Assembly: GCA_016187935.1 (NCBI GenBank)
Contig: JACPIU010000005.1
Span: 64,885-96,884, forward strand
DNA: 32,000 nucleotides
Direction of reading: 5' to 3'
Origin: Bdellovibrio sp.
GTDB lineage: Bacteria; Bdellovibrionota; Bacteriovoracia; Bacteriovoracales; Bacteriovoracaceae
Part shown: positions 4,336-16,850 of the stretch, one piece after another
Numbering within the stretch: the stretch's first letter is position 1
Layout of the letters: the number at the start of each line of letters is the position of its first letter
Translations under genes and position numbers: made by a program
Notes under the pieces: model-generated
Databases searched by the model: none
The model's input: only the letters and a program-made list of their open reading frames with translations
What the model was told of the DNA's origin: nothing

Positions 4336-6330
4336 ATGTCTTTTATGAAGTGTTTCATTGTGGCCGGTATGCTGGCATTTGCAAATAGCGGTCACACAAT
4401 TGATTTCGATGTTCCGCGCAGTTTTGTACCGCAAAATTTCAAGGACGGAATACCCTATTTGGGGGGAGGATTCGATTCCCACCGACAAAAGTTTACTGGT
4501 CGAAGATGTGTAGAGTTCAACAAAGATGTAATTGAATTATCTGGCGGATCTTCCGGCATGATCGAACTCAAATATCGCAAGGACCTGGATCGTCTGAGGA
4601 TGGAGCTTGGTTTAGACGTTGCTGGTAAACTATCCCTGGAAATTATCAGTGTGGGGGGCGCAGCCAGCTTGGCGATGGAAATCGTCGATGATGATTTGAC
4701 TAAGACATTTGTCTTTGAATCCTCATTTAACAGCAAGACATTAGGCCATGTCGGTCGAAAGACTGGACCTGGGGAAGGTAAAATATTTCTCAATGACTTG
4801 GGTAAAGAGGCCAAGGACAAGCCTGAAGATGAAAAACGCGAAGTCTGTGGAGATTACATGATTCAAGGCGTGAGTCTGGGGGCCAAATTCATTACGGCGG
4901 TGCAGTTGAGCTTCGCCACTAATGACCTTAAAACGAAATTTGAAGCTTCCATTGACGTCGATTTGGTGGACATCATTGAAATTTCTGGAAAGGCGAGAAA
5001 TTTTCTGGAGACCCATGGAGATCAGGTCTCTATTAATATTCGGGCCTTCCAACTGGGGGGAAATCCGGCGGAAATGCTCGATATCTTGGGAAGCGCTGGC
5101 AATTCCAATCGTGATACCACCGATGATATTTATCTGTTAAAGTGTGGAATCAGTGACACCGCCATTCAGAACTGTGTTAAAGCGCTTGAGCTCATCGTCA
5201 AATATGCCCACACAAACTTCAAAAATCAGATTAAGGATATGAGCTATGATTTCACCAGTCCAAAAGGCATGGCCGTGACAGGATACGTGTTGGAGACTTA
5301 CAAGCGATTGGGCGTATACGAGTTGTACCGGAACTATCCACCCCTGATGGATGCGAGAGTCAAGGATGCCAGAGAGGACTTATTAAATATGTATTTAAAA
5401 TTCGATCGCGATCACAAGCGTCTTCTCAGAATCAGGGACATGCATTTGACTCAAGAGGAGGAGAGTCTATTTAGCGAGATCGAAGACAAAATCAAGCACA
5501 ACAAAGATGTGGTCTATGAGACGTTGGACAAGTGCTATAACTTTATCGGAGACGTTTGTCTCAAACCTTATAAAGATATCAATGATCATTTAAAAAAATA
5601 CGATCCTAATAAGATTGTCAAAACTATCACGTTTCTAGATTATTGCACGATCCCCAAAAAGAGCGATGGATTAAAGAAGACAGTGGACGAGCTGTTTAAC
5701 TTCATTGGAATGGATGAGCAAACTGACAATTGTGAAAAGGCCTTTGAAGCTTTGAAGGAAGAAAATAACATCACTCTTTCCGGTAGGGGGGTAAGCTTTC
5801 TTGAACCTCTTTTGGGATTGCCAAATGTGGAAGAATTGGAAGTTGATCACAACCAGATTGTCGATCTTTCACCACTTCAGCATTTAAAGAAACTGCGCTA
5901 CCTCAATATTTCTCACAATAAGGTCAGAAACATCAGGGCCATCTCTGGACTTGAGAACCTGGAATGGGTGAATGCCTCGGACAATCTTTATATAAGGGAC
6001 GCCACGCCTCTGTACGGGCTGATTAAATTGCAGGAGGTCTATTTGCACGGCAATCAATGGGATTTTGGCCATAAACCGGTGGAAGTGGAACTCGCCAAAT
6101 TTAAATCCTCGGAAATCAAGCTTGGTAAGAAGATATCAGTGATGCAGATTGATGCCTGTAATCTAAAACGATCGCAGACCCTTTTCGATGGAAAAATCAG
6201 AGCGAGCACTTATGAGAATGCGGTTAATAAGGGTCTTTATCCGTTCATTCAATCTCAAGGGCGTAATGCCTATGAGATCAATGGTTGGGGTGACTGTGAA
6301 AAGGCCATAGCAACTTATTTTTTCTATTAG
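4336..6330 (+). CDS. Secreted MACPF/perforin-like domain protein with C-terminal leucine-rich repeats (paralog 1)
   Basis: Strong SD (GAGGAGGG) and signal peptide MSFMKCFIVAGMLAFANSG. LGGGFD resembles the start of a MACPF domain. CGDYMIQGVSLGA at 4846-4884 fits the MACPF signature (Y/W)G(T/S)H(F/Y)-x6-GG loosely. Internalin-like LRRs (LEVDHNQIVDLSPLQHLKKLRYLNISHNKVRNI...) lie at about 5770-6057. Confidence 0.6.
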   Translation: MSFMKCFIVAGMLAFANSGHTIDFDVPRSFVPQNFKDGIPYLGGGFDSHRQKFTGRRCVEFNKDVIELSGGSSGMIELKYRKDLDRLRMELGLDVAGKLSLEIISVGGAASLAMEIVDDDLTKTFVFESSFNSKTLGHVGRKTGPGEGKIFLNDLGKEAKDKPEDEKREVCGDYMIQGVSLGAKFITAVQLSFATNDLKTKFEASIDVDLVDIIEISGKARNFLETHGDQVSINIRAFQLGGNPAEMLDILGSAGNSNRDTTDDIYLLKCGISDTAIQNCVKALELIVKYAHTNFKNQIKDMSYDFTSPKGMAVTGYVLETYKRLGVYELYRNYPPLMDARVKDAREDLLNMYLKFDRDHKRLLRIRDMHLTQEEESLFSEIEDKIKHNKDVVYETLDKCYNFIGDVCLKPYKDINDHLKKYDPNKIVKTITFLDYCTIPKKSDGLKKTVDELFNFIGMDEQTDNCEKAFEALKEENNITLSGRGVSFLEPLLGLPNVEELEVDHNQIVDLSPLQHLKKLRYLNISHNKVRNIRAISGLENLEWVNASDNLYIRDATPLYGLIKLQEVYLHGNQWDFGHKPVEVELAKFKSSEIKLGKKISVMQIDACNLKRSQTLFDGKIRASTYENAVNKGLYPFIQSQGRNAYEINGWGDCEKAIATYFFY

Positions 6331-6343
6331 CAGGAGGCGCTCC

Positions 6344-14397: not shown

Positions 14398-16850
14398 AAG
14401 CGCTCATGCTGACAATTTGGCTGATGCTTAATATACCCTGGGTGCTTGCCGATGGTGCAAAGATTGTTGATGACAAATTTCATGTTTACATTGCCACAGA
14501 CAATCTAAAAAAAATGGCAAAATACATAAAGAAGCATGGGTGCAATATCTATAGCTCCGCAGGTGAGCATGCGCTCTTGACCTCGATCAAATTCACTCAG
14601 CTCTATCATGCTAACAGTATTTCCTTATTAGTGCAGGGATGCGCTGATTTGCATCTCCCAGATATTGGTGGGGGGCGCAATGCCTTGGTGGAAGATTTTT
14701 TTCAAAGACTGCAATATAACTTTTTATTTTATTCAACATCGACACCGATGATCCTGAATGCACTCTTGTCCGATCCTAAAACGACTTTAAATGAAATAGA
14801 AGGGCCCTTCAATCATTGTTCTACCTTTGGCTTGACTGATCCCACATGCTTGGTATTTGTCAATAATCTGCTGGCCCACTCTCATTCCCCTAATTATTTG
14901 AAGGATGATGTTTTTTTCGAAAAAATAAAAAAAATCATCGGCCACGACAAGAACAATCCTCTTGAGTTTTTTGGCCATGGTGAACTTCCCAACATGGACG
15001 TCGTACCGGTGTTGGAAATGGCGCTAGACCACTTTAAATACATTCTCGCCATCTTTCAGGACCTCTATCATCCCGAAAATAGCAATGGCGATCTGGCGGA
15101 TTTGATGCTGAAACAAAATGTGCATTTGCAAAATTTCGCCCATCTCTATGGGAAACGGCCTTTTCATGAGGACAAGAGCAAGATGTTTATAAGTCTTGCC
15201 AGACTTCTTCCGAAAGAATCCCTTTTGAAATTGCTCAATACGCGAGATGTTGAAGGAAAAACCATGCTTCACTATGTTCACTCCGTCCATGATCCTGACT
15301 TGCTTGAATACGTTAAGCTGGGTGGTGACCCGCTTATCAAGGACAAAGGGGGACAAAGCGTGCTTGATTTATTGGTGGCTTCTGAGAACTGGCCAACGAT
15401 TGTTGAGCTTGCCAAATATATAGATGATTTTCCCCTCTACATATTTCAACAATTGGCAACATACAGAACTTCGAAATTGGGCGACTTTCAGTTAAGAAAC
15501 GGACGCAATGCCGCTCATATGTTGATGATAGCAAAAATGACAGATCAATTGCCAGCGCTCAAGGATTTTGAAGCACTTTTGATGAAGCGGGACACTTTCG
15601 GCAATTCACCTTTTCACTATCTGGCCATGTACGGTGATGCCCAAGATTTTGACTTGATCAGTAAATTAAACATGGAACTCAAAGACGAGCATCTGGGGCC
15701 CAATCAATCCGGCAACACTTTTCTTCATGTTGCCGTTCGAAACAATAATTTGCATGCTATCGCGTGGTTTTTGGGATTGGGGCGTATGGTGAATGAAAAA
15801 AATCCCATTTTGGATATGACGCCACTTTACATGGCCGTCAAACTAGGCCATTTCGAGGCCGGCCTGAAAATTTTGGCACATATTCGAAAGGATGTTTCAA
15901 AAGACTCGCTGGTTTTTGATCATAGTGATGATGTTAATATCATCCATATGGCAATTGAAGAGAATCGGTTTGAAATGTTACGGCCTTTGCTGCTTCATTG
16001 TCCGAAATTACTTCAAGTGCCCAACTTGGAGGGGAAGAATGTTTTCCAAGTTCTGGCCCAGAAAGGTGAATTCAAGGCCATCATAGATATCTTGGATATT
16101 TTTAATTTATTTCTTTCCCAGTCGCATATTGACCTGTTGATTGATCGGGGCCTTGATCCGGGCAATGATTACGGCACGGGAGCGACACTGTTTCACAAAT
16201 TAATTGAAATTAACCGGCATGCACTTTTTCCCAGAAGCAAAATAAACAAAGAACTCATTGATTTAAAGGATGCCCAAGGACGAACGGTACTTCATCTCGC
16301 GGTACTCAAGCAAAACGCTGAATTGATAAAGGAACTGCTGGATTGGCACGCAAATCCCAACATTTTGGATAATGATGGTTTTACGGCCGCGCATTATTTC
16401 GCCTTCAAGACGCCGGGCATTTATTCCAACAAAAAGAATCTTTACCAAAGTCTGATCGCTTCCGGCCTGGACGCGAATATAAAAAGTGCCCAAGGACTGA
16501 CATTTTACGGGCATGTCATTTTGGATGGCGAATTTGTCGAGATCTTTCTCGATGATATTGACAAGAAAACGGAGCCTTTCATCACTGACAATGACGGAAA
16601 TAACCTGCTTGCGCAGCTTATCTTGCACTTTGGAATAGAAGGAGTCAGTAGCGAGGATAATTTGCTTTTGGAGGAAACCTTGATTCACTACGCGAAAAAA
16701 ATCTACCAGTTTACTAAAGATAGAAATGGGGAGAAAAATCTAACCTTAAGTAAAAACAGGCGGGGAGAGAATGCTTTGGACCTGGCAAGAAAAAAATATG
16801 CCGGCATTTCCAACAAATTGGTGTCTTTCCTTTTTAACCATGCCTTGTAA
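14394..16850 (+). CDS. Secreted ankyrin-repeat protein
   Basis: Start set at ATG 14394, overlapping the RCC1 gene stop (ATGA), with a CAGGAG SD. Signal peptide MKALMLTIWLMLNIPWVLADG. Multiple ANK repeats are present (GNTFLHVAVRNNNLHAIAWFL, MTPLYMAVKLGHFEAGLKIL, GRTVLHLAVLKQNAELIKELLDWHANPN, DGFTAAHYFA). Confidence 0.8.
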   Translation: MKALMLTIWLMLNIPWVLADGAKIVDDKFHVYIATDNLKKMAKYIKKHGCNIYSSAGEHALLTSIKFTQLYHANSISLLVQGCADLHLPDIGGGRNALVEDFFQRLQYNFLFYSTSTPMILNALLSDPKTTLNEIEGPFNHCSTFGLTDPTCLVFVNNLLAHSHSPNYLKDDVFFEKIKKIIGHDKNNPLEFFGHGELPNMDVVPVLEMALDHFKYILAIFQDLYHPENSNGDLADLMLKQNVHLQNFAHLYGKRPFHEDKSKMFISLARLLPKESLLKLLNTRDVEGKTMLHYVHSVHDPDLLEYVKLGGDPLIKDKGGQSVLDLLVASENWPTIVELAKYIDDFPLYIFQQLATYRTSKLGDFQLRNGRNAAHMLMIAKMTDQLPALKDFEALLMKRDTFGNSPFHYLAMYGDAQDFDLISKLNMELKDEHLGPNQSGNTFLHVAVRNNNLHAIAWFLGLGRMVNEKNPILDMTPLYMAVKLGHFEAGLKILAHIRKDVSKDSLVFDHSDDVNIIHMAIEENRFEMLRPLLLHCPKLLQVPNLEGKNVFQVLAQKGEFKAIIDILDIFNLFLSQSHIDLLIDRGLDPGNDYGTGATLFHKLIEINRHALFPRSKINKELIDLKDAQGRTVLHLAVLKQNAELIKELLDWHANPNILDNDGFTAAHYFAFKTPGIYSNKKNLYQSLIASGLDANIKSAQGLTFYGHVILDGEFVEIFLDDIDKKTEPFITDNDGNNLLAQLILHFGIEGVSSEDNLLLEETLIHYAKKIYQFTKDRNGEKNLTLSKNRRGENALDLARKKYAGISNKLVSFLFNHAL

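Follow-up and report, generated by a model that had tools for sequence, protein, structure and literature searches.

A 32,000-nucleotide window (the whole stretch of DNA analysed here) from a groundwater metagenome-assembled genome (MAG), the contig of which is named 'MAG: Bdellovibrio sp.' by NCBI, contains seven consecutive plus-strand open reading frames (ORFs) at positions 4336–16850. The question raised by this locus is whether the encoded proteins, designated P1–P7, act as separate effectors or as parts of one system. In the original prediction the block was taken for a dense cluster of Sec-exported proteins with eukaryote-like MACPF, leucine-rich repeat (LRR), Hint, RCC1 and ankyrin-repeat (ANK) domains. 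Our comparison of gene content and protein sequences led to another view: the first five genes, together with a serine protease gene (S8) lying outside the predicted range, constitute one conserved bacterial multi-gene module (1726–11249), to which the RCC1 and ANK proteins appear to be lineage-specific additions. On balance, we incline to regard this module as a conserved Sec-exported multi-component pore-forming system, which most likely serves for killing or permeabilising prey or competitor cells. The genes in question are as follows (lengths in amino acids, aa; the basis of each assignment in brackets).

1726–4050, minus strand: S8, subtilase-like serine protease, 774 aa from the ATG at 4050 (Pfam Peptidase_S8)
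4336–6330, plus strand: P1, long MACPF/CDC-like protein of clade A, 661 aa, with LRR (Pfam LRR, paralog alignment, BLASTP)
6344–7564, plus strand: P2, short MACPF/CDC-like protein, 406 aa, no LRR (AlphaFold2 model, Foldseek, motifs)
7561–9381, plus strand: P3, divergent long MACPF/CDC-like protein, 606 aa, with LRR (Pfam LRR, tree, paralogy)
9532–10539, plus strand: P4, Hint-like protein, exported according to the leader heuristic, 335 aa (profiles)
10590–11249, plus strand: P5, small anchored protein, 219 aa (family hidden Markov model)
11251–14397, plus strand: P6, RCC1-repeat protein, exported according to the leader heuristic, 1048 aa (Pfam)
14394–16850, plus strand: P7, ankyrin-repeat protein, exported according to the leader heuristic, 818 aa (Pfam)

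Gene layout and export leaders

The ORF layout confirmed the predicted run of seven consecutive genes on one strand. The likely translation starts (4336/4345, 6344, 7561, 9532, 10590, 11251 and 14394) were chosen by the positions of ribosome-binding sites and by ATGA overlaps of 4 nt; a Logan contig of identical sequence, on which genes had been called independently, yielded products of 606, 335 and 219 aa. The spacing is operon-like, with intergenic gaps of 13, -4, 150, 50, 1 and -4 nt: the start of P3 overlaps the stop of P2 by 4 nt, P6 starts 1 nt past the end of P5, and the start of P7 overlaps the stop of P6 by 4 nt. A scan for promoters and terminators returned signals at chance level, with nothing above it.

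The leaders of all seven products and of S8 comprise one or two Lys/Arg residues, an uncharged hydrophobic core of 12–19 aa and small-x-small cleavage candidates. A heuristic test for n-, h- and c-regions was positive for all eight proteins, among them the seven (7/7) for which Sec-type leaders had been predicted, and negative for the RyR-cyclase and TIR proteins encoded downstream of the block. Sec export of the seven products and S8 is a well-supported inference from these leaders, strengthened because cysteine pairs are invariant in the P1–P3 family; such pairs fit an oxidising extracytoplasmic location. Export of this kind, previously treated as an anomaly, proved to be normal for the MACPF-like family. 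The leaders of P1–P3 contain no lipobox Cys and look like substrates of signal peptidase I (SPI) rather than signal peptidase II (SPII), while 25 of the 121 relatives with hydrophobic leaders display a lipobox-like motif, as judged heuristically.

Relation of P1–P3 to the MACPF/CDC superfamily

P1, P2 and P3 are paralogs with 24–25% amino acid sequence identity and the common motifs C-G-D-x8-G and Q-x-G-G. P1 consists of the leader, an N-terminal domain of pore-forming type (about nt 4438–5595), a helical region, an LRR region (about nt 5752–6063) and a Cys-containing C-terminal tail; in P3 the LRRs are located at about nt 8926–9087. The repeats of both proteins exceed the Pfam cut-off (LRR_4, 48.3 bits for P1 and 33.7 bits for P3), as do the RCC1 repeats of P6 and the ANK repeats of P7 (see below); the repeat calls made earlier for these four proteins hold. 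The LRRs of P1 and P3 match internalins in PDB.

An exhaustive search with hidden Markov models (HMMs) of the P1–P3 N-domains revealed 1225 representative clusters (50% identity) at E ≤ 1e-3, 595 of them at E ≤ 1e-10, while a word-indexed protein search with a paralog or a 30-member alignment returned the window's own proteins alone. The family, which is large and bacterial, is characterised by an N-domain of ~370 aa and variable C-terminal modules, represented in half of 60 sampled members by LRR and in others by Kelch, jacalin, LamG, ANK or WD40 domains. Such variable C-terminal modules are typical of targeted pore-forming toxins. P1–P3 are members of neither the Pfam MACPF family nor the CDCL (CDC-like) family as these are defined. 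NCBIfam gave nothing for them, PF01823 was not one of the 25 Pfam families listed as commonest in 60 scanned members, and the PROSITE-type MACPF signature Y-x6-[FY]-G-T-H-[FY] does not occur in the paralogs, which read C-G-D-x-[FY] and keep only the G and the aromatic residue.

The relation to pore formers was revealed by more sensitive comparisons. A profile of 30 N-domains matched a sole solved structure, the Aegerolysin-L pore (9uj0_A), with E=3.7e-8 and 35.9 bits over profile positions 9–211, including the signature strand; the same search with the three window sequences alone gave E=0.13, and phmmer with P2 found nothing in PDB. Aeg-L is the large partner in a fungal aegerolysin pore toxin, and partners of this type belong to the MACPF-like proteins (PMC8624791). 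The AlphaFold2 (AF2) model of P2 (aa 36–400) obtained with a 30-sequence alignment had a predicted local distance difference test score (pLDDT) of 75.3, whereas that obtained with the three paralogs alone was unusable (pLDDT 38). All of the top 50 Foldseek matches of the former model in PDB were MACPF/CDC proteins, with probabilities mostly above 0.9 (the lowest being 0.66) and E down to 6e-5; among them were astrotactin-2 (the top match), listeriolysin O, Mpf2Ba1, Aeg-L, MPEG-1, pneumolysin and GNIP1Aa, followed by C8, Bth-MACPF, PlyB, perforin and Plu-MACPF.

The MACPF/CDC fold is a bent central beta-sheet between two helix clusters, and MACPF and CDC proteins are united by three hinge glycines, of which the first lies in the signature strand and the other two form a GG pair downstream. 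In the family under study G165, G233 and G234 (P2 numbering) are invariant in 60 of 60 members, as are four Cys residues, the surrounding motifs being C-G-D-x-[FY]-[VI]-x4-L-G and Q-x-G-G. The computed family-averaged beta hydrophobic moment peaks at N-domain positions ~36–80 and ~136–190, with a turn breaking each peak; both overlap regions of low pLDDT (34–82 and 168–174), where the transmembrane hairpins TMH1 and TMH2 are expected. Judging by the profiles, motifs and the model, P1–P3 belong to a divergent, database-unannotated branch of the MACPF/CDC superfamily, and by analogy with its characterised members they would form oligomeric membrane pores.

Conservation of the gene module

The neighbourhoods of four distant family members (loci L002, L003, L005 and L006) were compared by all-vs-all BLASTP, and further loci were collected by scanning 185,579 species genomes with a degenerate DNA motif constructed by hand and then applying tblastn and HMMs. 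At the protein level this motif matched 40 of 155 family members (26%), and the resulting taxonomic list is thus a sample, not a census. Four families recur beside one another: one to three MACPF-like paralogs, a P4-like Hint protein, a serine protease of S8 or trypsin-like type, and a small membrane protein of 210–270 aa. All four parts are present in five independent metagenomic/genomic loci. Incomplete sets were found in Myxococcaceae (L020: Hint-like, S8 and MACPF-like), Bdellovibrionaceae (L023: S8, small protein and MACPF-like), Pseudobdellovibrionaceae and another member of Bdellovibrionota (L024 and L025, respectively: Hint-like and MACPF-like), and in 'Deltaproteobacteria' or unclassified MAGs (L016, L019 and L021: small protein and MACPF-like, with or without S8). 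All loci that contain accessory genes and bear a name come from Bdellovibrionota, Myxococcota or 'Deltaproteobacteria' genomes.

The pattern of adjacent paralogs seen in the window (661, 406 and 606 aa) is also found in L002, L003 and L005. The best BLASTP partners of P1 are L002_10001 (4e-81), L005_10001 (2e-70) and L003_10001 (1e-64), and the short P2 has a counterpart of 373 aa in L002_13457-14578. In a rough neighbour-joining tree each multi-paralog locus contains one member of clade A (bootstrap 82), and the remaining sequences are split so that clades A and B together are opposed to C (bootstrap 87); P3 falls beyond this split together with L003_12711, L005_5349 and L002_11871. Such a topology suggests that the duplication is old and that the paralogs are used as hetero-oligomers.

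In L005 (4471–13780) the module is duplicated or rearranged within a single locus: of two sub-clusters lying back to back, that on the minus strand encodes a MACPF-LRR protein with a trypsin-like protease and a small protein, and that on the plus strand two MACPF-LRR proteins with a Hint-like protein and a trypsin-like protease.

In the 8–10 kb flanks of family members from Legionella/Legionellaceae, Sansalvadorimonas, Pleionea, Nannocystis, Silvanigrellales, Thiomargarita, Verrucomicrobiales and loci L030–L032, accessory genes were not seen. Legionella/Legionellaceae MAGs (L009, L011, L015 and L027) possess tandem pairs of MACPF-like genes with products of ~550 aa and no accessory genes within the 8-kb loci, and these pairs may be a two-component variant. 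In L031 (2749–14250, Logan SRR21358169) the MACPF-like domain is part of a 1004-aa protein, P0120, fused to ANK and WD40 repeats; HMMs of the Hint-like and small proteins gave no match in this locus, the neighbourhood of which looks like that of an intracellular, eukaryote-associated bacterium.

Accessory components: S8, P4 and P5

The divergently transcribed S8 gene starts about 290 bp upstream of P1. Its product comprises a hydrophobic leader with a possible lipobox (LSVAC), an N-terminal region of ~500 aa without assigned function and the C-terminal S8 domain (Pfam Peptidase_S8, E=6e-11, aa 560–703 of the 797-aa ORF). The motifs GAGN (oxyanion Asn) and GTSFAxP (Ser) are invariant in comparison with the L002 and L006 homologues; phmmer with the C-terminal part found nothing in PDB. 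Homologues of S8 adjoin MACPF-like genes in L002, L006, L019, L020, L021 and L023. The protease gene sits immediately upstream in L002 and L006, where it is of S8 type, and in L003 and L005, where trypsin-like proteases fill the same slot; from this interchange it can be argued that what the system needs is simply a secreted endopeptidase.

P4 consists of a leader, a Cys-rich N-domain (aa ~21–142) and a Hint fold extending from Cys143 (nt 9958) to about aa 310. The Hint call made for this protein earlier was borne out by profiles but not by Pfam, where Intein_splicing scored 22 bits against a cut-off of 35.8: residues 143–307 align to the intein of archaeal PolII (NCBIfam PRK14714, E=1.3e-7), a five-sequence profile of the P4 family matches solved inteins and the bacterial intein-like (BIL) domain at E=4e-6 to 2e-3, and C143 and the block-B T232-x-x-H235 are invariant in five homologues. 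Protein splicing needs a C-terminal His-Asn followed by Cys, Ser or Thr. The conserved C-terminal block of the P4 family, G-[YF]-L-[NS]-G-[ST] (V-L-N-G-T in the window), contains no His-Asn; P4 is therefore a candidate for Hog/BIL-like autoprocessing rather than a splicing intein, and at most N-terminal cleavage would be expected. Homologues of P4 occur in the module in L006 (6e-24), L005 (9e-20), L002 (9e-19) and L003 (2e-16), as well as in L020, L024 and L025. The possibility that the N-domain of P4 is aegerolysin-like was considered and found unsupported, no Pfam match being returned.

P5, in which the original prediction saw no recognisable domain, indeed contains no known one, and its family has no database annotation; however, it proved to have homologues and to represent a module-specific family. 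Its N-terminal membrane anchor or signal is followed by a linker of low complexity and a helical C-domain of ~130 aa. An HMM built from seven homologues with P5 excluded retrieved P5 as the sole match among the 71 ORFs of the window (E=4e-21, 67.6 bits). Homologues are encoded in L002, L003, L005, L006, L016, L019, L021 and L023.

RCC1 and ankyrin proteins

P6 scores above cut-off with WD40_RLD (174.7 bits, cut-off 150; 4e-51) and also matches RCC1 (83.9 bits) and RCC1_2 (76.9 bits). Its ~13 blade motifs over aa 25–735, about 11 of them clear and two degenerate, agree with the predicted 9–13 blades and probably form two propellers; the matches in PDB are UVR8, HERC2 and RCC1. The C-terminal region of ~310 aa is helical and has no database match. 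P7 contains Ank_2/3/4/5 and Ank repeats above the Pfam cut-offs (Ank_2, 78.5 bits), with a weak ANK signal in the N-terminal half too, and its leader reads MKALMLTIWLMLNIPWVLA, with the candidate cleavage site directly before DG.

Neither protein has a counterpart in the related loci compared by all-vs-all BLASTP and tblastn. They are probably co-transcribed, lineage-specific exported binding proteins and may act as extra targeting or self-protection modules; some members of the MACPF-like family carry propeller or ANK modules fused to the pore-forming domain. The earlier generalisation that ANK and RCC1 proteins usually lack Sec signals was too strong. Rickettsia RARP-1 is a documented periplasmic Sec-exported ANK protein (bioRxiv 10.1101/2022.02.23.481736), and in B. 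bacteriovorus periplasmic ANK proteins, such as the Sec-exported Bd3460, serve for self-protection (PMC4686830).

Proposed function and alternatives

The function that we favour for the module can be outlined as follows. P1–P3 would be exported by Sec and jointly build a hetero-oligomeric beta-barrel pore on a target membrane, as do long and short CDCL toxins or complement C5b-9, with the internalin-type LRRs acting as the targeting domain in the two long forms, P1 and P3. The co-encoded protease, whether S8 or trypsin-like, would cleave and activate the paralogs; self-cleavage of P4 between Gly142 and Cys143 would free its Cys-rich N-domain of ~120 aa as an accessory factor; and P5, as an inhibitor, immunity factor or assembly factor, would inhibit or organise assembly on the producer. 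We infer the assembly, protease-activation, P4 and P5 steps by analogy. Since the full module tracks predatory lineages, prey or competitor bacteria are favoured as the target and seem a distinctly better candidate than protists.

A number of points weigh against this proposal. Neither PF01823 (MACPF) nor PF01289 (Thiol_cytolysin) matched P1–P3 or six relatives even at E ≤ 10, and the MACPF domains predicted earlier hold at the superfamily level (9uj0_A at E=3.7e-8, AF2/Foldseek) but not in Pfam. Foldseek TM-scores were low (0.19–0.34), partly because the query includes an extra helical domain and floppy hairpin regions, and the presumed first hairpin region of the P2 model had pLDDT below 50 and is effectively unmodelled. 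Signal peptides were judged by the heuristic n/h/c-region test rather than by a trained predictor. The placement of the catalytic His of S8 is probable and that of Asp is not confident, clade B of the paralog tree is weak (bootstrap 35), and for the protease, the Hint-like protein and P5 the proposed roles are based on gene linkage and analogy only. The MACPF-like family also occurs without accessory genes in Legionellaceae, other Gammaproteobacteria, Thiomargarita and Verrucomicrobiales (8–10 kb flanks), and P0120 of L031 is surrounded by genes of an RCC1 protein (377 aa), a ubiquitin-like protein (281 aa), Lipase_3 and zf-MYND. Considering the Legionellaceae members and the L031 neighbourhood, a eukaryotic target is possible.

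These last observations lead to the alternative that survives best, though we hold it to be unlikely, namely, that the locus is an arsenal of independent eukaryote-like effectors directed against protists or other eukaryotic hosts and delivered, after Sec export, by a type II secretion system (T2SS) or outer-membrane vesicles. Besides the tandem pairs in Legionella and Legionellaceae MAGs and the ANK-WD40 fusion of P0120 among ubiquitin-like, zf-MYND, RCC1 and lipase genes, it is favoured by Aeg-L, the closest solved relative by sequence, which perforates eukaryotic epithelium, by the resemblance of the LRRs to internalins and by that of the P7 repeats, at the repeat level only, to Dot/Icm Ank effectors. 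However, S8 and five of the seven genes make up a single conserved module and not a collection of separate effectors, and the full module is present in genomes of predatory lineages and was not seen in Legionella loci. All of the domain classes in question are, moreover, common in exported bacterial proteins, and bacteria-killing toxins of MACPF/CDC type are established (PMC11169675). The label 'eukaryote-like' is not diagnostic, and the presence of LRR, ANK, RCC1 or MACPF domains should be taken with caution, being no proof of a eukaryotic target.

A further-reaching version of the pore-forming system, which we regard as speculative and rather doubtful, is that predation here relies on a bacterial version of the complement membrane-attack pathway, encoded by the module. 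The secreted protease would then be the 'convertase', and the three ancient paralogs would join one after another on the envelope of the prey to build a giant pore. The Hint domain of P4 would self-cleave and might transfer the Cys-rich N-domain to a lipid or another nucleophile, marking or priming the target membrane, while the small anchored inhibitor would protect the predator, as CD59 or BcdI does, and P6 and P7 would serve as detachable subunits for targeting or self-protection.

Non-lytic MACPF proteins are represented by astrotactin and some Bacteroides MACPF proteins. It is conceivable, if improbable, that P1–P3 are likewise adhesion, remodelling or developmental surface proteins and that the protease and the Hint-like protein process surface proteins: the non-lytic astrotactin-2 was the top Foldseek match, and lipobox-like leaders in about a fifth of relatives suggest surface anchoring. 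Against this, both amphipathic segments of hairpin type and the hinge glycines, known as features of membrane-inserting members, are strongly conserved throughout the family, and the architecture of several paralogs plus a protease mirrors that of lytic systems.

Finally, a gasdermin-like role in anti-phage defence or abortive infection, in which the adjacent protease would activate the pore former and the producer would be killed from inside, is hardly credible, for although a protease stands beside a pore former as in gasdermin systems, and TIR_2 and cyclase genes with weak PADLOC matches lie directly downstream and would belong to one defence island with it, all module proteins carry export leaders, their invariant Cys pairs indicate action outside the cytoplasm, none of them has a PADLOC match (the module was rejected as a defence system on this ground), and the TIR and RyR genes are leaderless, have a GC content of 0.49 and are absent from the related loci.

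Source organism and genomic setting

The earlier suggestion of a predatory lineage agrees with the name of the 141-kb contig and with the DapE/ArgE-family protein encoded in the window, the closest named homologue of which (78% identity) belongs to Bdellovibrionales bacterium GWA2_49_15; homologues from Oligoflexia MAGs are 56–60% identical. Within 10 kb on either side of the GWA2_49_15 dapE gene, this gene itself is the sole one in common with the window. As the block is absent beside it, the block is accessory and not an ordinary conserved core region, a possibility that had been named as the counter-case to the original prediction. No tRNA, Rfam element or transposase marking an island edge was found in the window. 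The gene adjoining dapE in GWA2_49_15 (L029, 8170–9444) encodes a trypsin-ankyrin fusion protein of 424 aa, a hint at a functional link between ANK repeats and secreted serine proteases in the lineage.

On the other side of S8, 3' of its stop codon, positions 1–1725 (~1.7 kb) are devoid of ORFs of at least 100 aa on both strands, and neither Rfam families nor tRNAs were found there; the stretch could consist of decayed genes or encode an RNA of unknown kind. Downstream of P7, at 17005–20578, two leaderless genes differ in GC content (0.49 vs about 0.42). The product of the first combines a RyR domain, TPR-S and a class III nucleotidyl cyclase, and that of the second TIR_2 and YARHG, with a predicted internal membrane segment. 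PADLOC matches were only weak for this pair (PycC-like cyclase, ThsB/SAVED-TIR), which may be a signalling or defence pair unrelated to the pore-former module. The region 22685–25224 encodes an ECF sigma factor, a 161-aa ORF product, possibly an anti-sigma factor, and two paralogs of ~250 aa that match the N0/N1 domains of the GspD secretin only, the secretin C-domain being absent; this locus is not a T2SS.

Comparison with known systems

The breaching of prey membranes by Bdellovibrio-like and myxobacterial predators is only partly understood; in the literature searched there was no perforin-type killing system of such predators and no publication that connects MACPF with Bdellovibrio, Myxococcus or Legionella. 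The present analysis adds a large family of the MACPF/CDC superfamily, as we assign it, which is missed by Pfam and NCBIfam and annotated as 'LRR protein' or 'hypothetical', and a conserved four-family module of protease, Hint-like protein, small anchored protein and paralogs of the putative pore former.

Among single-gene relatives, the bacterial MACPF proteins (Plu-MACPF, 2qp2; Bth-MACPF, 3kk7; Bacteroides BSAP; GNIP1Aa; Mpf2Ba1) share the fold by Foldseek and are also exported, several being toxic to bacteria or insects. Unlike the window family, they are detected by PF01823 and have no conserved protease, Hint-like or small-protein partners. The aegerolysin/MACPF pairs (pleurotolysin A/B, OlyA6/PlyB, Alternaria Aeg-S/Aeg-L; PDB 9uj0, 4oej) are the sole solved family reached by the sequence profile and share the signature [YC]-G-D-x-F-[IV]-x5-G-G; being partner-dependent MACPF pore formers, they resemble the module by analogy. 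However, no aegerolysin gene is present here, the partners being P4, the serine protease and the small P5, and the known examples are fungal, whereas the window system is bacterial and has extra LRR and helical domains.

P4 resembles Hedgehog (Hog-Hint) and BIL proteins in the Hint fold with its N-terminal nucleophile Cys and block-B TxxH and, as Hedgehog, it is apparently an exported protein with an N-terminal domain preceding the Hint. In contrast to inteins, it lacks the C-terminal His-Asn plus nucleophile, and splicing is not expected; in contrast to Hedgehog, it displays no recognisable sterol-recognition region, and its autocleavage is putative.

The closest parallel is provided by the CDCL toxins of Bacteroidota (Elizabethkingia, Bacteroides), which, like P1–P3 according to our assignment, are placed in the MACPF/CDC superfamily (PMC7527733, PMC11169675, PMC11952106). 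Their two or three genes are adjacent, the products kill bacteria after obligatory activation by proteolysis, and an immunity lipoprotein blocks them (PMC11169675). Common to both systems are two or three adjacent paralogs, including a short form without the C-terminal domain, and, judging by the leaders, export, with lipobox-like motifs in part of the window family; the proteolytic activation, co-encoded inhibitor or immunity protein and antibacterial role of CDCL would have their counterparts here, with activation and inhibitor assigned to the module by analogy. The differences are also distinct. CDCL proteins possess PF01289 and the F/Y-F/Y-Xn-YGR motif (PMC7527733), whereas in the window family PF01289 is absent, CGD stands for YGR, and the sequences are closer to the MACPF type (Aeg-L). 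The C-terminal D4 of CDCL is replaced by LRR, Kelch, ANK or WD40, and the SPII leaders by SPI-like ones in the window; BfCDCL is activated by a target-cell protease, whereas the window protease is encoded in the locus, and the Hint-like partner has no CDCL equivalent. Thus, multi-component toxins of MACPF/CDC type were already known, and what is new is the unannotated family of putative pore formers together with its dedicated set of protease, Hint-like and small-protein partners; the module adds support to the view derived from CDCL that multi-component, protease-gated, complement-like pore formers are widespread in bacterial antagonism.

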